A stretch of 64,000 nucleotides of DNA. It comes from Candidatus Dormiibacterota bacterium (GTDB lineage: Bacteria; Chloroflexota; Dormibacteria; Aeolococcales; Aeolococcaceae). A program made the position numbers and the translations under genes. Below are positions 45,387 to 60,422 of this stretch, in pieces (position 1 is the first letter of the stretch; each line of letters begins with the position of its first letter). Location of the stretch: assembly GCA_963718525.1 (NCBI GenBank), contig OY970355.1, forward strand, positions 3,072,001 through 3,136,000, read 5' to 3'. The notes under the pieces were generated by a model. That model was not told the origin of the DNA, did not search any database, and worked only from the letters and a program-made list of their open reading frames with translations.

Positions 45387-45400
45387 CGGGCGACGCGGCA

Positions 45401-45619
45401 ATGGTCATCGTTGTTGACCCGGGCGGTGACGAGCATGCGTATCAGACCGGACGCTACATCGAGGTCACCGACGGTCATCTGATCATCAGGGATGGCATCG
45501 GCGGCACAGCCATAGCGATCTTTGCGCCAGGGACATGGCAGTCTGCCCACATCGAGGCGGCGACTGCCCGCAATCCTGGAACGTCGGGCATCGCTCCCCG
45601 CCGGGGCCAGTCCACGTAG
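45401..45619 (+). CDS. Small hypothetical beta-strand protein
   Basis: MVIVVDP...DGHLII...AIFAPGTW; fused to the peptidase in the ORF track only through the frameshift. Confidence 0.6.
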   Translation: MVIVVDPGGDEHAYQTGRYIEVTDGHLIIRDGIGGTAIAIFAPGTWQSAHIEAATARNPGTSGIAPRRGQST

Positions 45620-45663
45620 CCGGCCCTCCGCCCTGGTGGCTCGTCACGCGTGAGGGCGCCTGT

Positions 45664-45816
45664 CTATTGCTTGCGAGGAGGGCCTTCGGGAGCGTCGGTC
45701 TCGGCCGAGCGGTCGGGATCCGGCACCTCCGGCTGCTCAGGATCGGGATCCGCGATCTCCGGCTCGGGCAACGGCTCGGGCGTTGAACTGGGGGTCGGGG
45801 TCATGGGAATATTCAT
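45664..45816 (-). CDS. Small acidic Pro-rich protein, leaderless
   Basis: TACACT 6 nt before the ATG; 50 aa rich in P/E/D. Confidence 0.5.
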   Translation of the reverse strand: MNIPMTPTPSSTPEPLPEPEIADPDPEQPEVPDPDRSAETDAPEGPPRKQ

Positions 45817-45876
45817 ACTGGGAGTGTATCTACCTGTACCTAACGATGGGCGTCTATCTGATATTGTCGCTATCAA

Positions 45877-46392
45877 ATGAGCACCACCCGCGTCACCGAT
45901 GTCATCCGAATGGACCACGTGTGGTTCCGCAATCAGTTCACCGCGCTCGGTGACGCGCGCGGCGATGTTGCGCGACTGACTTCGATCTGGGCCGCGCTGT
46001 CAACTCGCCTGGAGGTGCATGCGGCGGCCGAGGAGACGCTCTTCTACCCGCGGTTGCTCAAGGACGACCCCGATGCGGTCGATGACACCAAGGATGCGGT
46101 GAGAGACCACAACGAGATCCGAGACGCGATACGCAACGCCGAGGGGCACAGCGTCGGGGACGATCGATGGTGGCACGCGGTCAACGACACCGAGAAGGCC
46201 AACGACGAGCACATGGACGAGGAAGAACAAGGTCCGCTGCTCGAGTTCGACGATGCTGCGTCCACCGCCGAGCAGGCTGAGCTCGCGTCCGCATTCACGG
46301 CGTTTGAAGCAGAGCATGCAGGGGCTCGGGGTATAGCGGTAGTTGACAAGGACCCGGACGAGTACGTCGAGGAGATCATCGACGAGAGCTGA
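45877..46392 (+). CDS. Hemerythrin/HHE domain protein
   Basis: DH, HAAAEE..FYP, DHNE, HMDEEE. Confidence 0.9.
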   Translation: MSTTRVTDVIRMDHVWFRNQFTALGDARGDVARLTSIWAALSTRLEVHAAAEETLFYPRLLKDDPDAVDDTKDAVRDHNEIRDAIRNAEGHSVGDDRWWHAVNDTEKANDEHMDEEEQGPLLEFDDAASTAEQAELASAFTAFEAEHAGARGIAVVDKDPDEYVEEIIDES

Positions 46393-46413
46393 TCCGGTAC
46401 GACGACGACACAG

Positions 46414-46468
46414 CCGTATAGCTTGTCTGGCAGCTAAGTTGACACGACTGGTGCCGGGTCACTAAGCT
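46414..46468 (+). promoter_or_regulatory. Promoter of candidate sRNA 1
   Basis: CCGTATAGC-N16-TTGACA-N18-TAAGCT. Confidence 0.65.
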
Positions 46469-46474
46469 CCTGAG

Positions 46475-46566
46475 GTCGACGGTCGAGAGGTCGTCGTCCC
46501 CACCCCCTCCCAACGAGTCCACCCCGCCGGGATCAAGGTCCACGGCGCGGGTGGACTCTTCGGTTT
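46475..46566 (+). ncRNA. Candidate sRNA 1 (hairpin, C-rich seed, terminator hairpin)
   Basis: GACGGUC-GAGA-GGUCGUC hairpin, CCCCACCCCCUCCCAAC linker, GAGUCCACCC...GGGUGGACUC-UUCGGUUU; no convincing ORF. Confidence 0.55.
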
Positions 46567-46571
46567 CGCGG

Positions 46572-47708
46572 TCAGGCGAGTGGGAGGACGACGGTGAACG
46601 TGCTCCCGCCACCCGGGGTCGCGGTGACCGCGATGTCGCCCCCGTGGAGCCGAGCGGTCTCACGGGCCAGGTAGAGGCCGAGGCCGGTCCCGCGAATGTG
46701 GCTGGTTTCAGGCGTCACCAGGCGGCCGAACCGGCTGAAAAGCAGATGCGCCTGCTCGGCGTTGATGCCGATCCCGTGGTCGCGAACGACGATGCTCATG
46801 GCTCTGCCGTCATCTTCGCAGCCGATCTCGATCGTCCCACCCGCAGGCGAGTATTTGATCGCGTTGTCGATGAGGTTGGTCAACATGGTGGTGAGGCGGC
46901 GGCGGTCGGCGACAACGGCCACCGAGTCGCGCTGCGTGGTCACAGCGAACCGGTGCTCTTCGCTCATCAGCGGACGCATCGACTGCACGGCATCCTCAAT
47001 GACCCTGAGCAGGTCCAGGGGTTCGAGCTCGAGCTCGAGTCCGAGGGTCTCGAGCCGGGCGGTTTCAAGCATGTCTGAGATCAGTCGCGCCATCTCTTCG
47101 GCCTTCTCGGTGATGCGGCTGAGCGCCACGCGTCGCTCTGCAGGAGGCAACACCCCCTCGCCGAGCATCGATGAGTACCCCCTGATGATTCCGAGAGGGC
47201 TTCGAAGCTCATGCGCGGCGATGTTCAGGAACTCGCTCTTGAGCCGCTCGAGGCGCCGGCTGCGTTCGGCCTCCTGGAGCAGCTCGTCGGCCATCGCGGC
47301 CTGGCTGACTCCGTGACCAACGATGCCGGCAAGCGACTGCAACGTGCCGCGAGCATCGGCGCTGAGTCGGCCCTCGCCGCTGACGACGAGGAGCGCGGCG
47401 ACTCTCTCGTCGCCCCGCACCGGCACGATGACGGCGGGCGGGTCGTCGACAGTCAGGCCCGACGAGATCGCTCGGTCGAATGCAGGGTGGTCGCTGACGC
47501 GATAGGGCCCGCGAGCACTCGGCTCGACGAGGTCCGATGCCGCGACGCACGCCAGAAAATCGCCGCGGAGCAGGAGTAGCCAGGCTTGGCGGGAAATTCC
47601 AGGGGCGGATGCCAGCCGTGAGGCGAGCCTGACCGCTTCGCGGAAGAGCCGGCGCGACGCGTCATCCTGGGTGCCGGGGTCATCCGTAATGGGCGCCGGG
47701 TCCTGCAC
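46572..47708 (-). CDS. GAF sensor histidine kinase
   Basis: AAHELRSP, NAIKYS, GTGLGL; start 47708 or 47765. Confidence 0.92.
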   Translation of the reverse strand: MQDPAPITDDPGTQDDASRRLFREAVRLASRLASAPGISRQAWLLLLRGDFLACVAASDLVEPSARGPYRVSDHPAFDRAISSGLTVDDPPAVIVPVRGDERVAALLVVSGEGRLSADARGTLQSLAGIVGHGVSQAAMADELLQEAERSRRLERLKSEFLNIAAHELRSPLGIIRGYSSMLGEGVLPPAERRVALSRITEKAEEMARLISDMLETARLETLGLELELEPLDLLRVIEDAVQSMRPLMSEEHRFAVTTQRDSVAVVADRRRLTTMLTNLIDNAIKYSPAGGTIEIGCEDDGRAMSIVVRDHGIGINAEQAHLLFSRFGRLVTPETSHIRGTGLGLYLARETARLHGGDIAVTATPGGGSTFTVVLPLA

Positions 47709-48123
47709 GGCGGCGAGCGCCTGCTTCAGCTTGCGGTTGGGAGCGAGGCGCGATCGCTCGTTCAACGCTCTCGGCGAGCTGCGCCGGAGTGGTGTCGGCC
47801 TTGACCAGGAACTCGAGCGCGCCTAGCTTCATGCCTCGTTCTCGGAGCTCGGGTTCGCCGTAGTTGGTGAGGATGATCACCGGGATGTGCATGGTCTCGG
47901 GGGCCGAGCGAAGGCTCTCCAGCACTTCGAATCCATCGAGGCCCGGGAGACGGAGATCGAGGTAGATGAAGTCCGGAGCTTCGTCTGCGGCCAAGCGCAG
48001 GCCTTCCTTGCCATCGCGACCAATCACCACCGAATAGCCGTCGGCGACAAGTCGCAGCCGATACATCTCCGCTGCGGCGACGTCGTCCTCAATCAGCAGG
48101 ACCTTGACGTCATCCTCCAGCAC
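47680..48123 (-). CDS. Single-domain response regulator
   Basis: LLIEDD, IYLDLRLP, ILTN, FLVK; RBS GGAGGA. Confidence 0.92.
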   Translation of the reverse strand: MLEDDVKVLLIEDDVAAAEMYRLRLVADGYSVVIGRDGKEGLRLAADEAPDFIYLDLRLPGLDGFEVLESLRSAPETMHIPVIILTNYGEPELRERGMKLGALEFLVKADTTPAQLAESVERAIAPRSQPQAEAGARRRAGPGAHYG

Positions 48124-48290
48124 GTGCTCCTCCTTGGCCGTTGCAATTGGTCGCTCCCTCGGCAAATGCTACCTCCGCCTCTCGGTACGGTACCAGACAC
48201 AAAGCGCCCGTATTCACCGCACGGGTGTAGGCCCGAGGCCCTGGGACGCCACCGAGGGGCGTCCACCCCGCCGAACGCCAACCGCAGCGA

Positions 48291-48461
48291 TCAGCGAACG
48301 ACGATGCCCACTCCGAAGACGATGGTCCACGCCACGGCAAGGAAGAGTGCCATGCCGGTCACCAGGCTGCGTACGTCCAGCCTCCGACGACGCCGCAATG
48401 CGCGCAGGCGGATTCGAGGGGCAACCACCTCGTCCCGCCTTGGGGAAAGCATCTCGGTCAC
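48291..48461 (-). CDS. Small single-TM membrane protein (56 aa); not in the ORF track
   Basis: MTEMLSPRRDEVVAPRIRLRALRRRRRLDVRSLVTGMALFLAVAWTIVFGVGIVVR; TATCAT 6 nt before the GTG. Confidence 0.6.
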   Translation of the reverse strand: MTEMLSPRRDEVVAPRIRLRALRRRRRLDVRSLVTGMALFLAVAWTIVFGVGIVVR

Positions 48462-48485
48462 CGCGCAATGATAGCAATATCGCCG

Positions 48486-48504
48486 CTATCATGTTTTGTG
48501 ATAG
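48486..48504. promoter_or_regulatory. Palindrome CTATCA-N7-TGATAG
   Basis: CTATCAtgttttgTGATAG overlapping extended -10 TGaTAGGAT. Confidence 0.75.
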
Positions 48505-48561
48505 GATGTTCCTGCGGGGAGGACGAGGGACAGTCGCGACAATCAATTGGAGGTACGCGGT

Positions 48562-48765
48562 ATGGCTCGTAAGTACAAGCCGATACAGCTCGATGTGAAG
48601 CCGGTGGCCGGCGCCTATCTGAACGAGGCAGCCACGTGCCCGCAATGCAGCTCGCGCATCACCGAGGTGCTGGGCCGCATGGGTCTGCGGCTCGTCTTCC
48701 GCTGTGATCGGTGCCGGGTGCAGTTCTTCCGCCAGCGTGCCATCACCAGCGCAGGCCTGGTGTAA
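48562..48765 (+). CDS. Small CxxC..CxxC zinc-ribbon-like protein, copy 1
   Basis: RBS GGAGGT; TCPQC...RCDRC; paralog at 52829. Confidence 0.85.
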   Translation: MARKYKPIQLDVKPVAGAYLNEAATCPQCSSRITEVLGRMGLRLVFRCDRCRVQFFRQRAITSAGLV

Positions 48766-48882
48766 ATCTCCGAGTGCCGCGGCGATTGACGTATAGAATC
48801 GCTGGGATGCTGGTAACGCGCAGAGCTTCCCTACTGGCCGTCCGTGGCCGTCAGCTCCCACGCATCACATTCGGTCGGTCGA

Positions 48883-49227
48883 ATGCCGGCTGAAACGGTG
48901 GTTCCCACGTCGGAGCGCATGCTCGATCTCGACAAGCCGCTCTACACCATCAGCGTCGCTGCCGAGATCCTCGCAAGCCATCCGCGGACGCTGATGATGT
49001 ACGAGACCATGGGTCTCGGCGTGCCGGACCGCACCGCGACCAATCGGCGGCGGTACTCGCAGCGCGACATCCTCACGCTCAGCGCCATCCAGCGGCTCAC
49101 CAGGCAATCCGGGCTGAACATCGCAGGCGCGCGCTACGTCATCAAATGCCTGCAACTCCTCGACGCGCACGGCATCCCTCGGCCGCCGGAGCTCGCCGGG
49201 ATTGACATCGAGCACGTTCGGCTCTGA
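48883..49227 (+). CDS. HspR/GlnR-like MerR family regulator, copy 1
   Basis: PLYTISVAAE..HPRTL..YE..GL..P.RT..NRRRYS..D; start chosen by comparison with the paralog. Confidence 0.9.
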   Translation: MPAETVVPTSERMLDLDKPLYTISVAAEILASHPRTLMMYETMGLGVPDRTATNRRRYSQRDILTLSAIQRLTRQSGLNIAGARYVIKCLQLLDAHGIPRPPELAGIDIEHVRL

Positions 49228-51034
49228 TCTGCAGCCGCATCCGCCGGAGACCACGTTCGCCGGGTCGATCGAAGCGGACCTGGTCTCGCGTGGCGATCCC
49301 CACCAGATCATGGGGAGCCTGGTTCGTTTCGCGGCAGAGAACATCGATGTGGACCGCTGCACGCTCACCAGCCTGGACCAGGACGTCCTGCGGGTCGAGG
49401 CCAGCTACCAGCGCGGCGGCCCACCGGACTTCGTCGGGCACGAATACCCGCTGACCTGGCTGGCGAGGCAGCCATTGCTCCAGCAGGCGGTGGAGACCGG
49501 GTCGATCGTCCTCGGTGGCAGCCTCGGTCATGGTGGCAACGCCGATCCCGATCTCATCCCCGCATTGATTGCAATGCACCACACGGCCATCGTCCCGCTG
49601 TCCATCGGCGAGACGGTCGGCGCGGTGCTCATCCTCAGCCGGAGCAGCGACCGCCCATTCGTCCCCCACGAGCTGGCGGGTCTCCAGGAGGTCGGGCTCC
49701 TCGCGATCCTGGCCCTCCGCAACGCGCGCCTCGTCGAGCAAGTGCAGAGTGCGCAGAGTCGCGGCCTGGACTCCCTGACGCAGATGTCGCGCCACGTTGC
49801 CTCCAGCGTCGATCCGGCGACCTTCTTCGACAAGATGAGCGACACGATCGCTGGACTCGTCGGCGCGGAACGCGCGGGCTTCTGGCAGCTGACCGGGACG
49901 CAACTTGTGCCGATGCACCAGACGCCACCCAGCCCCGGCGACTCGCTGGACGCGCCGGAACGCCGCGTTCTCGATTCCGAAGGGGACCAGGACCTCGAGA
50001 AACTCCTGTTCTCGGGTCAGGCCCTGCGACACAGTGATGGTGACGCTGGCGCAGCGCGTGCGGATTCGCTGCTCACGCGGCTCGGGGCTCGAGACGTGCT
50101 CGCGGTTCCGTGGCGAACAGCCGCGGTTCCGCTGGGGATCCTGGCAGCCAGCAACTCCCAGTCGGGTTTCACCGATCAGGACGAATGGGTCATGCGTCTC
50201 GCCGCCCGCGCCTCTGCGCTCGTCTGGCAGGGCTATGCGGCGGAGCAGCGCGCCCAGGGGCTCCAGACGACCGAGTTGGACCGCCTCGAGGCACACGCAC
50301 ACCGCATGGCCGATCTCGAGCGCCAGAAATCAGAGTTCCTGCAACTGGCATCACACGAGCTCCGTGCACCGATCACCCTTGTGAGCGGCTACCTGTCGAT
50401 GCTCGAGGAGGGATCGCTCGGCGAGCTGCCCGAGCCAGCCGCGAAGGTTGTGCCGCTGATGACGGCGAGGATGCGGCATATGAGCCAACTCGTCGACCGC
50501 ATGTTGACGGCAAGCCGGATGGAGAATCGTGCTCGCGGCCAGAACGCCAAGGACGTCAGCGTTGCCGCGCTCGCGCGGGCCGTTGCGGCTTCGGCCGCGC
50601 ACTCGCCCGACGGCAGCTCACCCAGGGCAGTCCGCGTCAAGTCGGAGGGACGGGTCCGAATGCGTGTGGACCCGGAGCAGGTCGAGACGATCCTCGGCAA
50701 TCTCGTATCCAATGCGATCAAGTACTCCGCCGACGGCAGCGACGTGACAATCACCATTCGCGAGGAGCCGAGATGGGTGGCCGTCGAGGTCTCAGACCAC
50801 GGTGAGGGCATCCCCGAAGAAGACCTGCCAAAGCTGTTTCAGCCGTTCGGCCGGCTCTCGAAGGCGCTCGCCGCCGGCATCCCGGGCACGGGTCTCGGTC
50901 TGCACCTATCTCGCGGCTTGGCCCAAACCCTGGGCGGGGACATCGAGGTCACCTCTCGTCCGGGCGAAGGGAGTACATTCACGCTGCGCCTGCCGCGCGG
51001 ACGCAAAGGGCCAGCGGGGAGAATCCATGCCTGA
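49202..51034 (+). CDS. GAF-GAF sensor histidine kinase
   Basis: ASHELRAP, NAIKYS, GTGLGL; no TM segment; start uncertain. Confidence 0.92.
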   Translation: MTSSTFGSDLQPHPPETTFAGSIEADLVSRGDPHQIMGSLVRFAAENIDVDRCTLTSLDQDVLRVEASYQRGGPPDFVGHEYPLTWLARQPLLQQAVETGSIVLGGSLGHGGNADPDLIPALIAMHHTAIVPLSIGETVGAVLILSRSSDRPFVPHELAGLQEVGLLAILALRNARLVEQVQSAQSRGLDSLTQMSRHVASSVDPATFFDKMSDTIAGLVGAERAGFWQLTGTQLVPMHQTPPSPGDSLDAPERRVLDSEGDQDLEKLLFSGQALRHSDGDAGAARADSLLTRLGARDVLAVPWRTAAVPLGILAASNSQSGFTDQDEWVMRLAARASALVWQGYAAEQRAQGLQTTELDRLEAHAHRMADLERQKSEFLQLASHELRAPITLVSGYLSMLEEGSLGELPEPAAKVVPLMTARMRHMSQLVDRMLTASRMENRARGQNAKDVSVAALARAVAASAAHSPDGSSPRAVRVKSEGRVRMRVDPEQVETILGNLVSNAIKYSADGSDVTITIREEPRWVAVEVSDHGEGIPEEDLPKLFQPFGRLSKALAAGIPGTGLGLHLSRGLAQTLGGDIEVTSRPGEGSTFTLRLPRGRKGPAGRIHA

Positions 51035-51410
51035 TGGGTCACATGCGATACGGCTGTTGCTCGTCGACGACGATGCCGACGTCGCCAGCATGTACGAGCT
51101 GCAGCTGTCTGCTCACGGCTTCGACGTCATCAGGGCTAATTCCGGCAAGGAGGCCATTGATCGTGCCAGCACCGAGGCTCCTGATCTGATCTACCTCGAC
51201 CTCGGATTGCCGGAGATGCACGGGCTCGACGTCCTCAAGGAGTTGCGCTTGGATGCGCAGACGGCCGATATCCCAGTGGTCATCCTCACCAACTACAGCG
51301 AACCCGAGCTGATGGAGCGTGGCCGCCAGCTCGGAGCGCACGATTTTCTGATCAAAGCCCACACGCCGCCCGCCGCCCTCGCGGAAGCCACCCGAAGGTG
51401 GGTCTCGTGA
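51027..51410 (+). CDS. Single-domain response regulator
   Basis: LLVDDD, IYLDLGLP, ILTN, FLIK. Confidence 0.92.
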   Translation: MPDGSHAIRLLLVDDDADVASMYELQLSAHGFDVIRANSGKEAIDRASTEAPDLIYLDLGLPEMHGLDVLKELRLDAQTADIPVVILTNYSEPELMERGRQLGAHDFLIKAHTPPAALAEATRRWVS

Positions 51411-51769
51411 CTGATTCGACGTCTCCGGAGGATTCGGAGGCAGAACCCGATCACCAGGAGGCTCGAGAGGCAGCGCTCGATGCCGTGGAGCCGGTGCGCC
51501 TGCTTGAGGGCGAGGACGAGGACACCATGTATGTCGATGATGCCGTGCACTGGACGAAGGTGTACGCCGAGCTCCTTGACTTCAAGGCGAGCCTGCTGAC
51601 CGTTGCCGAGCATCGGCTGCCATCGATGGATGACGATGCCGAATCGGAGGTCAGGGAGACCGACCTCAAGGTGCTCAAGGCCGAGGCGGCTCGATTCGAG
51701 CGTCGCCTGGAGTTCTGGCGCGAGCGCGCTCGCGAGCTCAAGGCAGGCTCCGTTACCGATCCTCAATAA
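51407..51769 (+). CDS. Hypothetical acidic helical protein
   Basis: GTGA coupling to the receiver gene; DDAVHW..VY.ELL.FK...RRLEFW. Confidence 0.8.
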   Translation: MTDSTSPEDSEAEPDHQEAREAALDAVEPVRLLEGEDEDTMYVDDAVHWTKVYAELLDFKASLLTVAEHRLPSMDDDAESEVRETDLKVLKAEAARFERRLEFWRERARELKAGSVTDPQ

Positions 51770-51930
51770 ATCCAGGGGCGGCGGTTGCGCCACGTCACCG
51801 GGCGTCAACGCACGTATCGCAAACCATCTCATGGCGTCTCCGGCGTGACGCCGGTAGCGTCTGATTAGCCACGGGCGCCGGCGAACGAGGGTGGCCGCGT
51901 CCAGAGAGTGGGACTTGGAGGATTGGTGCC

Positions 51931-52680
51931 GTGCTGACTGTGGAGACTCCGCGAAAGGACACGAGCGCGCTCCGGCGCCTCGGTGCATTGCCCGCGACAG
52001 CGCTGTTCCGCCGCCGTGAGCAGGTCGCCCCGACGCCTCCTCCAGCATCGGGCATCGCCTGCACGATGCGTGGTTGCAGCAACGACACTGCCCAGCTATG
52101 TGCGTACCGTGATCGTCGCGACCGCTCCTGCACGGCCACGATCTGCCGTGCTCACGCGATCTCGCTTGGCGGCCGAACGTATTGCCGCCGGCACGCCGGC
52201 ACCGTGCAGGCGATCGGTGATCTGGCTCGGGACCAGAGTGCACACCCCGACGTCGACGACAGAGCTCCGTCGCTCGTGGACTGGATCGGCCGCGACATCG
52301 ACAGGGGCATCCGGACTCTGCTGGCGCGCGCCGCGCGCCCGGGCGAAAGCGTCATCGCCGATGAGGCTGCCCGGCTCGCCCACGACTTCCGCCGCAATGC
52401 CCGGTGGGAGCGGAGCTGGCGACTGATCGAGAGCACCGGCCCGATCCTCAACGTGACGCTGCACGTTGCGCAGGATGACGACTCGCTCGTGCACGTCAGG
52501 GTGGGAACCGAGGCGGTCGCGGACGGCGTACCTCCATGGATCGCCCGGCGCCGTGACGGGCAGGACGTCGAGGCAGCCATCGATATCTCCCAGCGACGGC
52601 TCTTCTACCGGTACCTCGAGGAGACGATCTCCGAGGCGGTGGCCCGGTTCCGCGACCGCTCCGATCGTATCGCCCAGTAG
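51931..52680 (+). CDS. Hypothetical protein with an N-terminal Cys/His-rich zinc-finger-like domain
   Basis: RBS GGAGG; C-x4-C-x7-C-x9-C-x4-C-x2-H-x9-C-x2-H. Confidence 0.8.
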   Translation: MLTVETPRKDTSALRRLGALPATALFRRREQVAPTPPPASGIACTMRGCSNDTAQLCAYRDRRDRSCTATICRAHAISLGGRTYCRRHAGTVQAIGDLARDQSAHPDVDDRAPSLVDWIGRDIDRGIRTLLARAARPGESVIADEAARLAHDFRRNARWERSWRLIESTGPILNVTLHVAQDDDSLVHVRVGTEAVADGVPPWIARRRDGQDVEAAIDISQRRLFYRYLEETISEAVARFRDRSDRIAQ

Positions 52681-52753
52681 GAGCGGCGGCGGGGGTCACC
52701 GCCCCTCGAACGCGAACGCCCCACCATGGCTGGAGCGTAGTGTGGTAGTATTA

Positions 52754-52772
52754 CTATCATCTTTTCTGATAG
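52754..52772. promoter_or_regulatory. Palindrome CTATCA-N7-TGATAG
   Basis: CTATCAtcttttcTGATAG overlapping extended -10 TGaTAGCTT. Confidence 0.75.
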
Positions 52773-52828
52773 CTTGTAGCCGACTCTTGCGCACGGTCGC
52801 CGGAGCGGTGCAGTCCGGAGGTAGCGCG

Positions 52829-53035
52829 TTGCCACGTAGATACAAGCCGGTCCATCTCGACGCAAAACCGGTCCCCGAGGCATGGCTGCAAGAGTTGGCA
52901 ACCTGCCCCCAGTGCGATTCCCGGCTGACCGAGGTGCTGGGGCGCATGGGCCTGCGTCTGCTGTTCCGCTGTGCGCAGTGCCGGGTCCGATTCTTCCGCC
53001 ACCCCAAGCCCACCGCAAGCGCGAGGTTCGTCTAG
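52829..53035 (+). CDS. Small CxxC..CxxC zinc-ribbon-like protein, copy 2
   Basis: TTG start after GGAGGT; TCPQCDSRLTEVLGRMGLRLLFRCAQC. Confidence 0.85.
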   Translation: MPRRYKPVHLDAKPVPEAWLQELATCPQCDSRLTEVLGRMGLRLLFRCAQCRVRFFRHPKPTASARFV

Positions 53036-53036
53036 C

Positions 53037-53381
53037 TCAGACCTTCACGTGCTCGACGTCGATCTCTGTCAGTTCGGCGGGACGCGGGACCCCATGCGCA
53101 TCGAGCAGCTGGAGACAGAGGATCAGGTAACGGGCGCTGATCAGATTGAGCCCGTATCCGCGAGTGAGTCGCTGAATCGCGCCAAGGGTGATGATGTCGC
53201 GCTGCGAGTACAGTCGACGGTTGCTGGCAGTCCGGCTGGGGACGACCAGGCCGAGATGCTCGTACATCATGAGCGTCCGCGTATGCGTGGCAAGGATTTC
53301 CGCCGTGATGCCGATCGTGTACAGGGGCTTGTCGAGGTTCAACATCTTGACCTCGCTGGTCGGAGCTGCCGCGCGTGTCAT
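53037..53381 (-). CDS. HspR/GlnR-like MerR family regulator, copy 2
   Basis: LDKPLYTIG...RTLMMYE...NRRLYSQRD...CLQLLDAHG. Confidence 0.9.
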   Translation of the reverse strand: MTRAAAPTSEVKMLNLDKPLYTIGITAEILATHTRTLMMYEHLGLVVPSRTASNRRLYSQRDIITLGAIQRLTRGYGLNLISARYLILCLQLLDAHGVPRPAELTEIDVEHVKV

Positions 53382-53401
53382 CTGTGACGACGAATCCGCA
53401 A

Positions 53402-54376
53402 CTACGCTGCGCGACGCCTGGCGTGCACGCGCAGGCGCACCACCGATCCCATCTCGCGCGACGAGCGCAGTTGCACGAGATCACAGAGCTGGTTGGCGGT
53501 CCAGAGGCCGCGTGCCCGAGTAGGATCCGCACCCGGCTGCTGCCGGTCGACAAGCGGGTCGCTGATCACGCCACGATCGGAGATCTCGCATACAACATCG
53601 CCATCGTCGAACCAGATCCGCGCGACGCCGCTCCCGGCGCCGTGGGTGACGCTGTTGGTTGCGACTTCGCTGACCGCGAGAATGAGGTCGTCAAGCCGTG
53701 CGGCGGAAAGCCCGGCGCGGGCGCCCTGAGTCGCGACCAGCGCGCGCAGTTCTCCGAGCGTGGCCGCTGTGAAGGACATCTCGGCGACGACCGTGGCGGG
53801 AGGCGCGAACGGCGATGAACGCGGAGCGCTTGGAGCCTGAAACTCCTCGCGACCACCGTCGCGTTCCGCCGAGACGGCCCCGCGGCTGTTGCCGATCACG
53901 GGGTGCGTCGTCCGCGCACCCTTGATGACTTCTGGATCGAGACCGGCGACGTCATATGGGCAGATCAGCCAGAAGCCTTGCACGCCGGCAAACGCCCGGT
54001 TGATGAGGGCCTCGTGCCACTGGCATTCCTCGAGGTGGACAGCAGAGCGACCAGGCCAGATCGGCTCGCCGACTCCGCGCATCCGCACGGCACCGGAGTG
54101 AGCGCCCGCGACAGCGAATTCATCCCACGCTGGAATGATCCGCGCGGGGTTCGCCCCGACGATCCGCATGTCGCGATATTCGACGAGCCCATCGTCGACG
54201 CCGCCGACACGCGCGCGGAGCGCGTCGATCTTGGGACCGCTGACCATCACCAGAGTCGGGTCCCCGGCGGCGATGCCATCGGTGATGAACTGCGCGACGT
54301 TTTCGACGAACTCGCTCTCATCTCTGTAGAAAACGGCCTCGTGGCGGAAGTCCGCGATGCTCGTGTTGCTGCTCAC
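53402..54376 (-). CDS. MEDS domain + RsbW-like HATPase (anti-sigma/Ser kinase)
   Basis: FRHEAVFY, NPARII, GEPIW, CPYD; SEVATNS..HG, DRG, RGLW. Confidence 0.9.
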   Translation of the reverse strand: MSSNTSIADFRHEAVFYRDESEFVENVAQFITDGIAAGDPTLVMVSGPKIDALRARVGGVDDGLVEYRDMRIVGANPARIIPAWDEFAVAGAHSGAVRMRGVGEPIWPGRSAVHLEECQWHEALINRAFAGVQGFWLICPYDVAGLDPEVIKGARTTHPVIGNSRGAVSAERDGGREEFQAPSAPRSSPFAPPATVVAEMSFTAATLGELRALVATQGARAGLSAARLDDLILAVSEVATNSVTHGAGSGVARIWFDDGDVVCEISDRGVISDPLVDRQQPGADPTRARGLWTANQLCDLVQLRSSREMGSVVRLRVHARRRAA

Positions 54377-55326
54377 CTCGCTCCCCCAGCTCCGGTGTCG
54401 GCTGGGGCTGCAGATGCGTTTCGCACGAGCCCGGCAGCGCTCATCGCTCGCTGAAGACGCGGCTGGATGCCGCGCAGCGTCACGTGTCCCGCAGCCTCGG
54501 CCGCGACGAGCATGCGCAGGCCGGCGACCGAGCAGAAGGTGACCGCGGAGAGATCGATGGTGACCGCAGGGTGGCTGCCCGTGGCGTTCTCGATCGCTTC
54601 GCCCAGCGCATCGATGTTCGCCTCGTCGATGCTTCCCACCAGACTCAGATTCGGGCCGTGGGAGTGCGAGATCAGCAACCCTGCGGTCGCCACGACATCA
54701 CCCTCATGCGCTCCCCCGAAACCCTCGGGTCGGAGGATCGAATCTTCGTCCGCCGACGGCAGGTCGAGGCGCGAGCTGTGCTGCCATTCGCCGAGCACGT
54801 GCGCGGCGCGCGCCGTGAGATCGATCGGTGAGTAGCCGATGTCGGCGATCCGATCCGCATACTTTGTGATGAACGCGCTGAACTCCGCCACAAACTCACG
54901 GACCACCGCCGCGAGCGCGGCTCGTGCTGCGCGATCATCCGCTGGGGCCGCGAGCGCGGCCGCCTTGGCAGTGATCAATTGCCTGAGCGAATCCGGGTAG
55001 AGCCGCTCGAACTCGGCGTTGAGCGTCCGCAGCACCTCGATCCGTCCCGGTCCCATCATCGCTAGCCAGCGCATCCTCTCGAGGTCGGAACCGAGTGCGC
55101 AGCGCGGGTAGAACTGATTCGTGGCGAGCTCGCCAACCATGAGATGTGCGCACGCGACATGCGTTCCGAGCGGCTTTCCATAGGAGGTGGCCGCGATGAA
55201 CTGCGCACGTTGAAACGCGGGGCAGTCGGGGCTCAAACTGTCGAAGCTAGGACCGAAACGGCACCGATCTCGTGGCTCCTGGTCCTTCGATGTGCGTGCC
55301 ATCTGGCGCTTGGAAAGAATGGCCAT
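54373..55326 (-). CDS. Cys-containing unknown domain fused to STAS (anti-anti-sigma-like)
   Basis: C-terminal GSIDEAN..IDLSAVTFCSVAGLRML; N-terminal C..CPAF..CAHL..YPRC; GTGA coupling to the MEDS gene. Confidence 0.8.
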   Translation of the reverse strand: MAILSKRQMARTSKDQEPRDRCRFGPSFDSLSPDCPAFQRAQFIAATSYGKPLGTHVACAHLMVGELATNQFYPRCALGSDLERMRWLAMMGPGRIEVLRTLNAEFERLYPDSLRQLITAKAAALAAPADDRAARAALAAVVREFVAEFSAFITKYADRIADIGYSPIDLTARAAHVLGEWQHSSRLDLPSADEDSILRPEGFGGAHEGDVVATAGLLISHSHGPNLSLVGSIDEANIDALGEAIENATGSHPAVTIDLSAVTFCSVAGLRMLVAAEAAGHVTLRGIQPRLQRAMSAAGLVRNASAAPADTGAGGAR

Positions 55327-55392
55327 CGAGCCAGCTCAGGCCGGCACGCGGTCGATCATGATAGTGAGTGTATACCGTGCGGCCAGCCGCCG

Positions 55393-55480
55393 AGAAGAGC
55401 TACCACCCCGGCCGGGGATGACCCCCGGCAGGGTGGGCTTTGGGGAGGGAAATTCGAATGCCGGTGGAATAATCCACCCA
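55393..55480 (-). ncRNA. Candidate sRNA 2, homologous to sRNA 1
   Basis: GGUGGA-UUAU-UCCACC hairpin, UUUCCCUCCCCAAAG linker, CCACCCUGCCGGGG..CCCCGGCCGGGGUGG hairpin, CUCUUCU. Confidence 0.55.
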
Positions 55481-55486
55481 GAGGTG

Positions 55487-55541
55487 ACTCTATCAGCCTG
55501 GTAGACCTGCTGTCAAGCAAACTTATAACATGGCTATACGG
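55487..55541 (-). promoter_or_regulatory. Promoter of candidate sRNA 2
   Basis: CCGTATAGC-N16-TTGACA-N18-TAGAGT on the minus strand. Confidence 0.65.
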
Positions 55542-55571
55542 ATAGTGATCTCGCCAGGTTCGCGCACGAGG

Positions 55572-55937
55572 CTAGGCATCACGGAGATGCACAGCTGCCT
55601 CCTCCGCGGGAGGCTCGTCGTCGACGTCGACACCGAGTGGGTCGGGCTCGGCGAGGGCGACACCGTCCTCTCCGGTCTCACCGTCGATCAATTCGGCTCG
55701 CTCCGGAAGGTTTGTTTCGACCGCTGAATCGGGTTCCTCCTCGGCGAGCCGCTCGTCGAGGGTCTCGCGGACGTCAGGATCGACGATGCGGCGCGCCGCG
55801 AGGTCCCGGGCGTCGGTCTCATCGCCGACCACCTCGGCTGGGTCCGGTTCGACGGCACCAGGGATCAATGCGTCGTCGTCCGGCACGTCGTTCGATGGCA
55901 GGTCTTCCGGGTGGGGGCCGGGGTTGTTCGAACTCAT
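55572..55937 (-). CDS. Acidic hypothetical protein (DUF5709-like)
   Basis: ETLDERLAEEEPD ... AEEAAVH motifs. Confidence 0.75.
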   Translation of the reverse strand: MSSNNPGPHPEDLPSNDVPDDDALIPGAVEPDPAEVVGDETDARDLAARRIVDPDVRETLDERLAEEEPDSAVETNLPERAELIDGETGEDGVALAEPDPLGVDVDDEPPAEEAAVHLRDA

Positions 55938-56041
55938 GGTGCTATGCAATCAGATCCATACGTGCCGGCGGGCCGTGCCGTCCGCCGGGGCCTCTTCAAT
56001 CAGGCTGCCACGCTGATACTCGCGCTCTATTCACATCCTTC

Positions 56042-56060
56042 CTATCAGTTTCGCTGATAA
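56042..56060. promoter_or_regulatory. Palindrome CTATCA-N7-TGATAA
   Basis: 7 nt upstream of the receiver GTG at 56068. Confidence 0.7.
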
Positions 56061-56067
56061 TAGCTTT

Positions 56068-56475
56068 GTGGACGACGACGTGAAGGTCCTGTTGATCGAG
56101 GACGACGCGGCTGCCGCCGAAATGTACCGGCTTCGGCTGGCCGCTGACGGCTACACAATCGTCATCGCGCGAGATGGCGAGGAAGGGTTGCGGATGGCCT
56201 CGGAAAACTCACCCGACTTCATCTATCTCGACCTGCGTCTGCCCGGGCTCGATGGCTTCGAGGTCCTCGAGCGGCTCAGGGGGGATCCGGCCACGACACA
56301 CATCCCGGTCATCATCCTCAGCAACTACGGCGAGCCGGAGTTGCGCGAGCGAGGCCTGAAGCTCGGAGCGCTGGAGTTCCTGGTCAAGGCGGACACGACA
56401 CCAGCGCAGCTGTCCACAAAGGTCGGGCAGTCCCGCGAGCCGCACGCGATCCCCTCGGGAGACGCGCCCCGCTGA
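56068..56475 (+). CDS. Single-domain response regulator, close paralog of 47680-48123
   Basis: DDVKVLLIEDD..AAEMYRLRL...PDFIYLDLRLPGLDG...FLVKADTTPAQL. Confidence 0.93.
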   Translation: MDDDVKVLLIEDDAAAAEMYRLRLAADGYTIVIARDGEEGLRMASENSPDFIYLDLRLPGLDGFEVLERLRGDPATTHIPVIILSNYGEPELRERGLKLGALEFLVKADTTPAQLSTKVGQSREPHAIPSGDAPR

Positions 56476-56491
56476 GGGTCTCCGTGTTGTG

Positions 56492-56522
56492 CCGGCGGCT
56501 GCCCCGGAGAGCCAGCCGCCGG
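56492..56522. terminator. GC hairpin between convergent genes
   Basis: CCGGCGGCTG-N11-CAGCCGCCGG. Confidence 0.6.
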
Positions 56523-56565
56523 ACTTCACGCCCCGTGCTTCAAACGGTGGGATCGGATATCGCTC

Positions 56566-56584
56566 CTATCCAAGTTCATGATAG
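56566..56584. promoter_or_regulatory. Palindrome variant CTATCC-N7-TGATAG
   Basis: One mismatch; overlaps a minus-strand TATCAT. Confidence 0.55.
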
Positions 56585-56613
56585 TGCTGCTGTACTGTTC
56601 GCCGCAACAAGCG

Positions 56614-57858
56614 CTAGGCGCCGTGGGGCACCGGCTCGGTGTGCACCCCCTCCTCCTCCACCGCTCCGACCTCTTCCCCGAGCCGGGGCAGGCTGTCGAC
56701 GCTGACCGAGTCGCCGGGGGTCGTGGTCATAGGCTCCTCACCGCGCCTGGCGCGGTAGAGGGCTCCCAGGAAAATGTTGCCCACGGCTGCGATGGGAACA
56801 GCGAAGAGCGCACCCAGGATTCCCGCCAGCTCGGCACCGACGAGCAGCGCCGCCATGGCCACCAGGGCGTGGAGGCGCGTCACCCGGCCGTAGATCCGAG
56901 GCCCGAGCAGGTACGCGTCGATGGCATGGCCGGCTAGGCCGATGCCGCCCGCGAAGAGTGCGAGTGCCGGACTCTGCACCAGGGCCACCAGAACGGCGAG
57001 CGCCATGGCCACCACCGCGCCGACGATGGGAATGAACTCCAGGAAGAACGCGGCAATGCCGATGAGAATCGCGTATCTGACGCCGATGAGAGTCAGCGCC
57101 ACCCCGGTGTACGTCCCGATGATGAACGACATCACCACCTGCCCGCGAACGTATGCGGCAACCGTCGATCCGATCGCGAGCGCCGCAAAGTCGAACTCGC
57201 GCTGATGATTGGGAGCGAGGTTGCGTGCAGTTGCGACCACCGCTCGTCCTTCGATGAGGAGGTAGATCGAGATGACCACCACCAGTACGACACTCACCAC
57301 TCCCGAGACGAACGCTGCGACAACGCCGAGTGCCACGCCGATCTGCTGACCGTTCAGGGTGTTGATCAACGATGTGAATGAGTAGGAAATCCCGTGCTGT
57401 CGCAATTGATTCTCGATCGTCGAGAGGAGCATCGGCAGCTGCTTCGCCTGCGCGATCACGGTCGGAAGCACCAGCACGATTGCGCCGGCAATGATCGCGA
57501 TCCCGACCCCGTAGAGCAGCAGCACCGCGAAGGAACGATGGCCGCGAAACGGTCGGATCCGCTCCATCGCGTCCACGAGCGGAGTCAGGATGAGTGCGAG
57601 GATTCCTGCGAAGACGAAGAGCAGCAGAACATTGAAGATGTGGACGAGGATGAATGCCGCACCTTCGAAGATCCAGATGAGCGCCAGGATGATCCCCAGC
57701 CATACCAACGCTTTCAGGGAGCGGCTTTCCCAGAGTTGGGAGCGCATCGACCGGCTCGCCGAGGCCGCCTGTGATCGTCGCGGCGTGGCGCCGTCCTTGG
57801 CCGCGCGCCGCCGAGCAGGTGACGAGGATGCGGTTCGCTTAGACGGAGACGTGCTCAA
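56614..57858 (-). CDS. AI-2E (PerM) family transporter
   Basis: YVRGQ, EFIPIVG, GALFAVP; multiple TM segments. Confidence 0.9.
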   Translation of the reverse strand: MSTSPSKRTASSSPARRRAAKDGATPRRSQAASASRSMRSQLWESRSLKALVWLGIILALIWIFEGAAFILVHIFNVLLLFVFAGILALILTPLVDAMERIRPFRGHRSFAVLLLYGVGIAIIAGAIVLVLPTVIAQAKQLPMLLSTIENQLRQHGISYSFTSLINTLNGQQIGVALGVVAAFVSGVVSVVLVVVISIYLLIEGRAVVATARNLAPNHQREFDFAALAIGSTVAAYVRGQVVMSFIIGTYTGVALTLIGVRYAILIGIAAFFLEFIPIVGAVVAMALAVLVALVQSPALALFAGGIGLAGHAIDAYLLGPRIYGRVTRLHALVAMAALLVGAELAGILGALFAVPIAAVGNIFLGALYRARRGEEPMTTTPGDSVSVDSLPRLGEEVGAVEEEGVHTEPVPHGA

Positions 57859-57873
57859 GGTTGAAGCTGTAGA

Positions 57874-57892
57874 CTATCAGTAAAGCTGACAT
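57874..57892. promoter_or_regulatory. Palindrome variant CTATCA-N7-TGACAT
   Basis: In the divergent AI-2E/kinase intergenic region. Confidence 0.55.
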
Positions 57893-58010
57893 TGTCAGTG
57901 TAGATTGTTGCGCTCAACTGCGTACGTGGGAGCAGGTCTACATTCAGCAATGTGTATCTTGGTGATATAGTCGATATCATCAAAATGGCCGGTCATTCAC
58001 TCGCGTAGCT

Positions 58011-60422
58011 GTGCCCGAAGGGATCCAGAAGGATTCGTCCTCCAGGGCCGTCCAATCTCCATACCGGCCGGCTACGATCGAAGCGGAGCCCAGCGACCCG
58101 CAGGACGGCAGCCGCGTCAATGAGGCCCTCGGTCGCCTTGTCGCGCGACTTCTGGATGACCTTCCCCCTGATCCACGCGAAACCGTGCCACTTCGGGATC
58201 TGCTCCGGACCATGGCCGTCGAGGGCACCCGCGTCGTGCCGCACACCGAGTGCGTCATCTCGGTGGTTCCGGCCTGGCGACCGGACGTCTTTCAGGTCGT
58301 CGCCGCCTCCGGCCCGTGGGCAGAACGCCTCGTCGGCGAGGAGTGGCCGCTGCATGACGGGATGCTGCACGGGCGCGCCATACTGAATCGCGTTCCCGTC
58401 GAGACCACCGACGCACCCAACGAGAGTGCTGCTCCCGAGGTCTTCGGCTCGCATATCCGCATCGGACGGCTGGTGCCGATGACGGCCGGTCTCCCACTCC
58501 CTGACGGACGCGTCGGCATGGGTGTCGTGGGTTTCTGGCGCCCCGAGACCAGGCCGTTCACCGATACCGAGCGAGCAATCATGGATCGCTTCACAGGGCT
58601 CATCAGCATCATGGTGCTTGGTGACGAGGCGAGTGAGTCCACACGGCACCTGGTCGATCGGCTGCGACTGACCAGGGAGGCGACACGCGAACTTTCGTCC
58701 TCGCTGGATCCGTCGCGGGTCGTGCAGGCGATCGTCGAACGCATCGCCGAGCTGGTTGACGTCGATCGCATCACGGTGACCAAGTTCTGGCCGGACTCGG
58801 TCGAGGCGATCGCAGGCTACGACAGGAGTTGCGTGCCCGCGCGCATCGGCGCCAGGTGGAGTTCGACGCCGGAACTTCGCGCCGAGATCGACAGCGGCGA
58901 GGCGGCGCTCGAAAGCCTTGCCGATGTCGCGGGGATGCCATCCGACATGCGCGAACAGCTCTCGGATGTGCGAAGGCGCGTGATCCTGCCGCTCAGAGCC
59001 GGTGGCCGCGTTCTCGGCATCCTCGCAGTGAGTTGCCGGACCGACAAGCCCTTTGCGCAGCTCGATTTGGAGAATCTCGAGCAGATCTCGCTCTCAGCGG
59101 CTCTCGCACTCCAGAATGCCAGCCTGTTCGCCGAGACAAAGGAAGCGCAGGAGAAAGCACTGCATGCGCTGTTGAGCGTGTCCGACCATCTCGACGCCAC
59201 CTCGAGCGACGTCGACCTCTATGCGCGCTTCGCCGCAACCGTGGCGGAGCTGGTCGGCGCTCGGCGCGTGAGCCTCTGGAGACTCAGCACGGATGGCACG
59301 CGATTGCGGCCCGCGGCGGGAGCGCACGGTGTATCCAAGAGGGAGTTCGAACGGCTGCGATCGGTCCCGTGTGACCCGCACGGGGCATCCGAACGTGATC
59401 GCGTCGTCTTCGGTGACGCGGTGTTCCGAGGGCGCGCCGCGGACCTCGGACTGGGTGCACCAACCGGCGAACAGGAGCATCCGCGGGCCGAAGCGATGGC
59501 AGTTGCGTGGCGCGCCGGCTCGTTGCGCCTCGGCGTGCTCGCCGCTCATGAGCCGATCAAGCTCTCGGGATTCAGCGACGAGGACGCATGGACGCTGCAG
59601 CTCGCCGCGTTCGCCGCGGGTCTCGTCTGGCAGATCAAGGCGTCAGAGGAGCGCATCCGGGCTCTCGGCGATGCGGAGGCACGCCGCCTGAACGAACACA
59701 TCGAGCGCACGCGGTCAATGGAAAAGATGCGTTCCGACTTCCTCAAACTCGCATCGCACGAGCTGCGCGGGCCGATTGCGGTGGTGCGCGGCTATTTCTC
59801 GATGATGGCCGACAAGTCGCTCGATGCAGAAGCGCTCGAGCGTGCCATGCCCGTCATCGAGCGCAAGCTCGACGATATGAACGCGCTGGTCAATGAGATG
59901 CTCGAAACAGCACGGCTCGACGATGGCATCACGAGGCTCGAGCGCCAACCGCAGAGCCTGCGCACCCTCGTGGCGGCCTCGACGGCCACTCTGCAATCAC
60001 AGCTGTCCTCACGACATCACCTCGACGTTCGTCTGCCAGGCAGCGCGGTGCTGGTCGATGTCGACGCGGGAAGGATCGAGACAATCATGAGAAACCTTCT
60101 CGACAACGCGATCAAGTTCTCACCCGAGGGAGGCGTGATCAGCTGCCACGTGACCGCGAGTGATGATGTTGCGCGAATCACGGTCATCGATCACGGCCTC
60201 GGCATCCCGCCTGAGCAGATGCACCGTCTGTTCACGCGCTTCAGCCGGCTGGTGACCCCGCAGAACAGTCACATCTCGGGCACCGGCCTGGGGCTCTACC
60301 TTTCGCGTGAACTCGCCCGCCTCCACGGCGGCGACATCACTGCGCACTCGACTCCAGGAGGCGGCGCGTCGTTTGTGCTGACGCTGCCGACGTGGCACGC
60401 GGAGCGCGCAACTTCCGGGTAA
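58011..60422 (+). CDS. Triple-GAF sensor histidine kinase
   Basis: ASHELRGP, NAIKFS, GTGLGLYLSRE; no TM segment. Confidence 0.93.
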   Translation: MPEGIQKDSSSRAVQSPYRPATIEAEPSDPQDGSRVNEALGRLVARLLDDLPPDPRETVPLRDLLRTMAVEGTRVVPHTECVISVVPAWRPDVFQVVAASGPWAERLVGEEWPLHDGMLHGRAILNRVPVETTDAPNESAAPEVFGSHIRIGRLVPMTAGLPLPDGRVGMGVVGFWRPETRPFTDTERAIMDRFTGLISIMVLGDEASESTRHLVDRLRLTREATRELSSSLDPSRVVQAIVERIAELVDVDRITVTKFWPDSVEAIAGYDRSCVPARIGARWSSTPELRAEIDSGEAALESLADVAGMPSDMREQLSDVRRRVILPLRAGGRVLGILAVSCRTDKPFAQLDLENLEQISLSAALALQNASLFAETKEAQEKALHALLSVSDHLDATSSDVDLYARFAATVAELVGARRVSLWRLSTDGTRLRPAAGAHGVSKREFERLRSVPCDPHGASERDRVVFGDAVFRGRAADLGLGAPTGEQEHPRAEAMAVAWRAGSLRLGVLAAHEPIKLSGFSDEDAWTLQLAAFAAGLVWQIKASEERIRALGDAEARRLNEHIERTRSMEKMRSDFLKLASHELRGPIAVVRGYFSMMADKSLDAEALERAMPVIERKLDDMNALVNEMLETARLDDGITRLERQPQSLRTLVAASTATLQSQLSSRHHLDVRLPGSAVLVDVDAGRIETIMRNLLDNAIKFSPEGGVISCHVTASDDVARITVIDHGLGIPPEQMHRLFTRFSRLVTPQNSHISGTGLGLYLSRELARLHGGDITAHSTPGGGASFVLTLPTWHAERATSG

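Follow-up and report, generated by a model that had tools for sequence, protein, structure and literature searches.

GlnR and TnrA are short MerR-type regulators which, according to PMC4335299, bind the palindrome TGTNA-N7-TNACA and require its 7-bp spacing; their dimers are weak, and partner proteins that bind the C-terminal tail switch them. In the same source the TGTNA half-site is read by Arg28, Arg31 and Tyr32, and TnrA requires G at half-site position 4. Here we compare these proteins with a cluster of signalling genes (the island, positions 46400 to 60422) found in the window, by which we mean a stretch of 64,000 nucleotides (contig OY970355.1, positions 3,072,001 to 3,136,000) from a Candidatus Dormiibacterota bacterium. 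The island encodes two small MerR proteins, which we call mini-MerRs, and carries six copies of a palindromic box. Dormibacteria are uncultured bacteria of deep, resource-poor soils that make trehalose and glycogen and are enriched after an ethanol treatment that selects for spores, according to a preprint (bioRxiv 10.1101/647651). As judged from comparisons of sequence, the island belongs to a real and conserved regulatory system, and neither this system nor the regulation of Dormibacteria hardiness is described in the literature that we searched, the coverage of which excludes most subscription papers and bioRxiv supplements (the spore-gene list of 647651 may include some of the genes).

We denote the genome carrying the window G000, other genomes Gnnn, relative loci Lnnn, and the Dormibacteria families f1 to f5; the window's genus sits inside f1. 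The class set comprised 150 genomes (36 from f1, 17 from f2, 35 from f3, 53 from f4 and 9 from f5), or 151 with G000. Three f3 genomes flagged as unpublished (G110, G124 and G132, the last supplying one row of alignment A4) are counted in f3, and their omission lowers f3 counts by at most three and leaves the conclusions unchanged. Tallies of modules within the genus refer to 29 loci anchored on Cx1, one of two CxxC proteins of the island, with the loci that span the given gene as denominators. The Pfam domain scan of the island took in 18 proteins, and NCBIfam cut-offs were applied.

Mini-MerR 1 (48883..49227, plus strand) and mini-MerR 2 (53037..53381, minus strand) each contain a MerR_1 domain. 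By both sequence and fold their closest PDB matches are GlnR and TnrA: GlnR/TnrA-DNA complexes take the first four places among the fold matches (Z 11.0-11.4, root-mean-square deviation 1.6-3.2), and canonical MerR proteins follow from Z 10.1, a margin of about 1 Z unit. The proteins are 102-114 amino acids long, and in the predicted model (predicted local distance difference test score 93) the last long helix spans residues 68-83 and is followed by coil, with no C-terminal coiled coil in that model. The model aligns with 4r4e from residue 1, where it has no helix, and it omits 12 further N-terminal residues. Like GlnR and TnrA, the mini-MerRs are short winged-helix proteins without a coiled coil; they also share the central recognition arginine and a short C-terminal tail, and the box to which they would bind has the same geometry, a 17-bp palindrome with a 7-bp spacer. 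The pattern of the tail is kept even in MerR paralogs with divergent wings, which, by analogy with GlnR/TnrA, is consistent with a docking surface. In a quick tree (101 columns, many forks open), MerR1, MerR2 and a third paralog form one genus clade (support 97) nested in f1, and most Dormibacteria genomes carry 2-7 MerR paralogs, in which they differ from the TnrA/GlnR systems. When 200 genomes were drawn from the phylum, class members matched the subfamily at 136-186 bits and other lineages at no more than 85, with one exception at 137. By these comparisons, the MerR proteins are a Dormibacteria subfamily of the TnrA/GlnR-HspR branch and a new variant of it. The only non-Dormibacteria genome of this draw with a full-strength MerR match is G183 (G183:C164:1228-1512), which may reflect transfer or misbinning.

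The box reads CTATCA-N7-TGATAG. Boxes 1 (48486..48504, at Cx1) and 2 (52754..52772, at Cx2) are perfect; Box 3 (55510..55528) overlaps the -35 element of a predicted small RNA (sRNA2), Box 4 (56042..56060) lies upstream of the receiver REC3, Box 5 (56566..56584) lies between convergent gene ends with no evident target, and Box 6 (57874..57892) lies between the AI-2E and HK3 genes, where 12 of 25 relative loci have a third MerR paralog that is not in the window. Five of the six have at most two mismatches and the sixth, at 55510, scores 19.9 bits, while the next-best island site reaches 4.7 bits. Across the 3.3 Mb of G000, four of the five sites with at most one mismatch fall inside the island. 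Searches of 37 relative loci with the N7 spacer returned 40, 65 and 96 sites at 0, 1 and 2 mismatches, where each of nine other spacers returned 0, no more than 1 and no more than 19; the N7 spacer alone is enriched in relatives. With a matrix built from 74 sites in 32 relative loci, to which G000 contributed none, we found 11 sites of at least 18 bits in G000 (six in the island, four at 759-778 kb and one at 2883382), and five altered-spacer controls found 0, 1, 0, 0 and 3. The first-pass annotation had reported five to seven copies of one palindrome and a construction from duplicated modules under it; the six copies and the single clade of MerR paralogs bear out both points, and the shared motif is real.

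Beyond the genus, the operator could be followed in a scan of whole genomes. The exact 19-mer is present in 11/11 genus genomes and in 8/139 genomes outside the genus and G000. Its exact 17-bp core, TATCA-N3-W-N3-TGATA, occurs in 54/151 genomes (f1 20/36, f2 0/17, f3 23/35), against 2 for the reversed control and 21/151 for a looser N8 control (f1 8/36, f3 2/35), and the excess is confined to f1 and f3. Upstream of MerR in f4 there is a conserved CTGTCA-N7-TTAGG, in which the right half is worn. Fetching loci by the motif alone gave 19 non-genus loci, nine of them from f3, whose genes we named by eye. Six boxes precede a MerR paralog heading trehalose genes, two precede CxxC genes, and one each precedes a receiver gene, a 51407 operon and a 51931 paralog; a further four stand before KGG-type (two), GlsB-like and glutamine-synthetase-like genes, and four have no evident link. 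At six of the nine f3 loci a further MerR paralog, at the head of trehalose-synthesis genes, has the box 33-81 nt upstream, and these sites are orthologous. A box upstream of a glutamine-synthetase-like gene, again named by eye, is found in G076; the three genes of G000 with a glutamine synthetase domain lie far from all MerR copies, and the Dormibacteria context differs from that of TnrA/GlnR in consisting of trehalose and stress genes rather than glnA.

Within G000, a second box cluster (759256-779033; L084 and L085) contains genes for a hemerythrin, a receiver paralog, DUF6582, PfpI and DUF72 proteins, a third MerR (93% to MerR1) and two 51407-like proteins, with a perfect box 25 nt upstream of the hemerythrin paralog at G000:759299. 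A weaker box (14.6 bits) lies between treY and glgX just beyond the window, and a similar site is found amid trehalose/glycogen genes in L053 and L067. Three observations on single sites may be added. The box at G000:C1:2883382 (20.7 bits), the right half of which is TTGACA, is far from other regulon genes and may front an unannotated RNA. Box 5, between the convergent ends of the REC3 and AI-2E genes, is listed in seven relative loci and possibly serves another small transcript. Conserved reversed half-sites of the TGATAG-N5-CTATCA type beside boxes, at window positions 57963-57979 and 52743-52759, suggest arrays for cooperative binding.

Cx1 is encoded by 24/24 genus genomes, and in the 29 loci anchored on it gene order is conserved while modules are often deleted. 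REC1 and HK2 are each present in 27/29 loci, MerR1 in 22/29, MerR2 in 24/27 and Cx2 in 10/27; the MEDS kinase (9/27) and the Cys-STAS protein (17/27) also vary. Median identity to the window is 94% for MerR1, 88% for Cx1, 87% for REC3 and 86% for MerR2, and 64-79% for the kinases and the MEDS and STAS proteins. Across the class, the MerR subfamily was found in f1 33/36, f3 35/35, f4 52/53 and f5 9/9, the receiver family in f1 33/36, f3 35/35, f4 43/53 and f5 9/9, the 51407 family in f1 28/36, f3 35/35, f4 43/53 and f5 9/9, and the CxxC family in f1 31/36, f3 0/35, f4 39/53 and f5 8/9. The last three families are absent from f2 (0/17 each), in which the MerR subfamily gave 6/17, all weak hits (E ~1e-5). 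The homologs are thus not scattered: they co-occur, are syntenic in the genus, and share a joint gap in f2. In the loci examined outside the genus, a receiver gene and a MerR gene stand no more than 600 nt apart in 23/31 genomes, among them 10/11 from f1, 7/8 from f3 and 3/3 from f5.

The surroundings of these pairs also recur. Seven other f1 genomes have the order trehalose-6-phosphate synthase (with the phosphatase in some), small membrane protein, MerR, receiver, MerR, holin_3_6-family gene, and in f3 and f5 receiver-MerR pairs lie near PBP1A-like, CsbD, YtxH, ftsH or otsAB genes. The ancestral site in G000 (743864-747268; genes named by eye) retains a zinc ribbon, a holin_3_6-like gene, a small membrane protein gene and otsA, with the small membrane gene now abutting the holin gene and the MerR-receiver-MerR trio gone. 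Because this site has been emptied of its regulators, the island appears to be a copy that moved next to treYZ and expanded. The system is class-wide, and the island is a genus-level re-assembly of it. The annotation's view of an undescribed signalling island survives as far as the literature searched is concerned, and gives way on uniqueness. A foreign origin was considered and rejected, as the GC content of the island is ordinary (65.3% vs 66.3%) and its position is fixed in the genus.

We propose that the island is a genus-level expansion of a Dormibacteria-wide set in which a mini-MerR binds the box and controls a stress/trehalose regulon, a reading that, taken whole, we give an even chance. 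That MerR binds the box is probable, and a stress/trehalose regulon is likely to much the same degree; direct contact between receiver and MerR, argued from analogy, is a tentative suggestion that we lean somewhat against. The box lies over promoters of genes for MerR paralogs, CxxC proteins, a receiver, 51407, sRNA2 and stress proteins. GlnR/TnrA-like MerR dimers would bind the operator T(A/G)TCA-N7-TGA(T/C)A and, because the box overlaps the -35 or -10 element of normally spaced promoters, would repress. By analogy with the weak GlnR/TnrA dimers that a C-tail partner switches, the tail of MerR would be a docking site for a separate receiver and/or the CxxC zinc ribbon, in place of the glutamine synthetase or GlnK of the TnrA/GlnR systems. 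The receiver would be phosphorylated by the soluble GAF kinases, and with the receiver as partner of MerR the system would amount to a response regulator split over two genes. On release of MerR, the regulon would be expressed, including its own signalling genes and sRNA2, and the C-rich sRNAs would damp translation by pairing with ribosome-binding sites. Of these parts the regulon itself is well supported by the comparative evidence, while gene adjacency and co-occurrence lead us to the hypothesis that the phosphorelay converges on MerR. The stress part of the role in stress or dormancy suggested earlier agrees with the stress/trehalose context; for dormancy there is nothing beyond trehalose and general-stress neighbours. 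The proposal would supply, for Dormibacteria hardiness, a defined regulator with its operator, a list of targets and a pair of sRNAs and, if true, would carry the TnrA/GlnR design over from nitrogen sensing into the control of stress, perhaps with phosphorelay input. A bolder version, which we hold to be rather unlikely, is that general stress or dormancy is run by a novel type of output, split regulators (receiver plus mini-MerR), with the zinc ribbon as second effector and the C-rich sRNAs, as a new family, forming a post-transcriptional arm, together doing the job of SigB, RpoS or PhyR-EcfG.

Several findings count against this proposal. The class genomes are kin, so their counts are not independent. 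In f4 the box is no more frequent than its spacer control (8/53 vs 8/53), and in f5 hardly so (2/9 vs 1/9), despite the presence of MerR, and in G057, which is without MerR and receiver, a single exact box precedes a 51931 paralog. At some sites the box halves double as promoter elements: TTGACA at sRNA2 and, in the right half of Box 1 at Cx1, the extended -10-like TGnTAGGAT. No receiver gene directly adjoins a MerR gene in the window, and only 3/9 f4 genomes have the two adjacent in the loci examined (three of these genomes being represented by one of two MerR loci). Close HK3 orthologs are found in the genus only, with 0/35 passing in f3, which leaves the ancestral receiver without an identified kinase. 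Finally, of the residues by which TnrA reads its site, Arg28 is kept while Arg31 and Tyr32 are both Met, and box position 4 is A in 123/148 half-sites where TnrA requires G. By these differences the MerR proteins, which would work like GlnR/TnrA, are not members by their operator.

In one alternative, MerR does bind the box, the kinases, receivers and RsbA/STAS proteins are regulon members with other outputs, and MerR, on which no signals would converge, is controlled by CxxC proteins, by paralog heterodimers or by proteolysis. In f4 the CxxC gene follows MerR within ~0.6 kb in 14/14 loci, compared with the 3/9 for the receiver; f4 CxxC proteins are homologous to Cx1 (32%, E 3e-13). Divergent MerR paralogs with altered wings occur, one f3 receiver-MerR pair ends beside ftsH, and no genuine receiver-MerR fusion was found. 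Two apparent fusions, P0271 and P0284, were rejected, as the receiver slips frame after residue ~115 and loses the conserved Lys; the shared position of the slip likely marks a gene-calling artefact, a natural frameshift being the alternative. Against this explanation, receiver and MerR genes that overlap or nearly abut persist in f1, f3, f5 and part of f4, and f3 keeps its receivers though it has no CxxC match. We regard this alternative as rather unlikely.

A less probable account, to which we assign a small chance, is that a factor other than MerR binds the box, or that the box is for the most part symmetric promoter sequence, with back-to-back -35 and extended -10 elements. A candidate factor exists: a paralog of the 51407 protein (G000:C1:568289-568822, L112) is fused to an OmpR-type Trans_reg_C domain, in the place of the receiver, and the 51407 family shares the distribution of the system. 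The coincidence of box halves with TTGACA and TGnTAGGAT, the box in the MerR-less G057 and the lack of enrichment in f4 and f5 would also fit. However, the would-be -7 T is T in just 49/148 half-sites while the centre of the spacer is A/T in 142/148; at Cx2 both halves of the box are conserved though there is no divergent gene; the strict 7-bp spacer fits the geometry of GlnR/TnrA; and OmpR-type domains usually read direct repeats. The fusion suggests that 51407 is a regulatory input domain and that its stand-alone copies are possible modulators. The island copy (51407..51769, plus strand) is an acidic protein of an unnamed Dormibacteria family, for which no PDB sequence match was found at E up to 1 and Atlas matches were unnamed Dormibacteria clusters.

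The partner-switch genes of the island raise a third alternative, that the cluster is an ordinary SigB-type general stress response in which RsbA/STAS proteins tune a SigB-type sigma factor. The MEDS+HATPase_c_2 protein (53402..54376, minus strand) is anti-sigma-like and passes the NCBIfam RsbA cut-off (315.5 bits vs 210), and its partner (54373..55326, minus strand) joins a four-Cys domain to a STAS domain, so that the MEDS-RsbW-like kinase and Cys-domain-STAS protein of the first reading are as described. The Streptomyces RsbA/SigB switch (PMC8346170) likewise pairs an RsbA protein with a STAS protein. The nearest SigB/F/G sigma gene (G000:2512096, ~0.6 Mb away) is above its cut-off and adjoins an RsbW-like gene, and the target genes are typical of general stress. 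The island operon differs from the Streptomyces switch in being without a sigma gene, and the module is optional (MEDS kinase 9/27 loci); many relatives keep the four-Cys domain without STAS. In the island STAS domain the column of the RsfB Ser holds Val, with a Ser one residue earlier; we take the RsfB Ser of that column to be the phosphoacceptor. Among 12 island upstream regions we found no strict SigB-type promoter and one loose one, against a background of 152/3004 genes (consensus from PMC8346170). We therefore think a plain SigB-type response very unlikely. The partner-switch arm is optional, with a SigB-type sigma elsewhere in G000, not MerR, as its probable output, and the earlier suggestion that partner-switching signals converge on MerR finds no support. 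Single-domain response regulators act in general stress networks, and the island resembles these in combining several soluble kinases and receiver-only proteins with general-stress targets; it differs in its putative output, a DNA-binding protein of the MerR type in place of a sigma/anti-sigma mimic.

That the mini-MerRs are HspR heat-shock repressors, as automatic annotation and many database names have it, we dismiss as barely credible: HspR (NF047375) is the best NCBIfam hit of both, but they score 78.7 and 67.8 bits where the cut-off is 105, which none of five matches in G000 passes, dnaK of G000 is without an adjoining MerR gene of the HspR type, and by the motif letters that we presume for them a CIRCE site is found elsewhere in G000, as is an hrcA-like gene, and neither of two HAIR-like sites lies in the island. 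HspR is an autoregulating MerR-like repressor with an inverted repeat over its own promoter (PMC6102357); it is the nearest named profile, and the mini-MerRs differ from it in score, dnaK linkage and operator. Of the HspR/GlnR-like character first ascribed to them, the MerR_1 domain and the GlnR likeness stand and the HspR identity does not.

The island also contains two homologous sRNA-like elements, as had been noticed at first reading. A profile search recovers both across genus loci and finds no further copies in G000. sRNA1 (46475..46562, plus strand; ends approximate) is predicted to consist of a hairpin, a C-rich linker and a GC hairpin, with a predicted promoter (TTGACA, 18 nt, TAAGCT; 46439..46468, plus strand) that is absent from a stricter promoter scan; sRNA2 (55398..55480, minus strand; ends approximate) has a promoter-like site (TTGACA, 18 nt, TAGAGT; 55487..55516, minus strand). 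We aligned 48 copies, namely the full-length non-duplicate ones among 82 profile hits and the two of the window. All of them have TTGAC, which in 45/48 is followed after 17-18 nt by a -10-like hexamer; 47 have a folding z below -2, and in 27 every base of the C-rich hexamer is unpaired. Classical MerR activators differ, in that their promoters have non-optimal spacers and the proteins a coiled-coil dimer. Among 20 sRNA1 copies, pairing in the two-hairpin structure reaches 98.5%, and 4/23 pairs have two-sided changes, a result seen in 6/500 shuffles and set against 1-3 in slid controls, its weight limited by relatedness. In the joint 48-row alignment the 3' hairpin is without two-sided changes, and the 5' hairpin, which is variable, fails to align. 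sRNA1 is oriented into the HK1 gene at that gene's 3' end and is retained when HK1 is lost, as sRNA2 is when Cys-STAS is lost. The box is found at sRNA2 only, the sRNA1 site scoring 3.7 bits. The prediction of two sRNA-like elements, each with promoter, two hairpins and C-rich linker, is well supported; the 3' hairpins could alternatively act as terminators, and a strong U tail is absent from both elements. Rfam covariance models gave no match at E up to 1 in 44000-62000, and outside the genus a search of BLAST-level sensitivity gave short hits only (E above 1e-4). Ranking of targets by duplex energy was uninformative, with island leaders at rank 202 or lower of 3014, and long seed complements were matched by 1/3004 leaders. 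RsaE of S. aureus and actinobacterial 6C RNA are reportedly C-rich anti-Shine-Dalgarno sRNAs. The island elements resemble them in length (~90 nt), in their two hairpins and in a CCUCCCC motif, and differ in having no Rfam match, in the placing of the C-rich stretch in the linker and in being confined to one genus.

All the genes listed in the first-pass annotation are present by domain scans. The three stand-alone receivers, REC1 (47680..48123, minus strand), REC2 (51027..51410, plus strand; a divergent paralog) and REC3 (56068..56475, plus strand), contain Response_reg only; D12, D55 and K107 are invariant in 52 aligned sequences, and the acidic pocket, phospho-Asp, Ser/Thr and Lys of two-component receivers are in place. 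Relative to L051, the window is one nucleotide short at 47723-47745, by which REC1 loses its stop and gains ~16 residues, through assembly error or strain variation. The histidine kinases HK1 (46572..47765, minus strand; start uncertain), HK2 (49202..51034, plus strand) and HK3 (58011..60422, plus strand) have HisKA and HATPase_c domains, keep their H- and N-boxes, and are soluble by hydropathy (maxima 1.5-1.7 vs 2.5-2.9 for the two membrane proteins). The description of three soluble GAF kinases holds for solubility throughout, and for GAF domains in HK2 (GAF-GAF) and HK3 (multi-GAF); the GAF_2 hit of HK1 is below cut-off (E 0.009). Cx1 (48562..48765, plus strand) and Cx2 (52829..53035, plus strand) are paralogs, 64-66% identical, and against PDB the CxxC proteins gave weak zinc-ribbon matches only (E 0.011 or worse). 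In other f1 genera (L153:1559-1756 and L241-L244) the CxxC gene stands by itself, flanked by clpP-like and trigger-factor-like genes, and 3/4 loci have a strong box.

The Pfam scan of 18 island proteins turned up neither an output-domain response regulator nor a sigma factor, in line with the earlier claim. The flanks are likewise as reported, with a hemerythrin-domain protein on one side (45877..46392, plus strand; Pfam) and treZ and treY, named by eye from translations, on the other. Four genes had been overlooked: a 53-residue single-membrane protein (48291..48452, minus strand; 20/29 genus loci), a 249-residue Cys-rich protein (51931..52680, plus strand), an acidic protein that is a recent addition (55572..55937, minus strand; 1/26 relative loci) and an AI-2E family transporter (56614..57858, minus strand). 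The 51931 protein, with seven matches in the genome, is a probable passenger; its Cys/His-rich family has 6-8 matches per genus genome, is class-wide including f2, and was rejected as a core part since it does not track MerR (f2 15/17, f3 2/35). A short Pro/Glu-rich stretch resembling an open reading frame (45664-45813, minus strand), upstream of the hemerythrin gene, is partly conserved in relatives, and ~15 kb past the end of the window in G000 (L086:6648-9135) there are phosphoribulokinase-like and RuBisCO large-subunit-like genes, named by eye.

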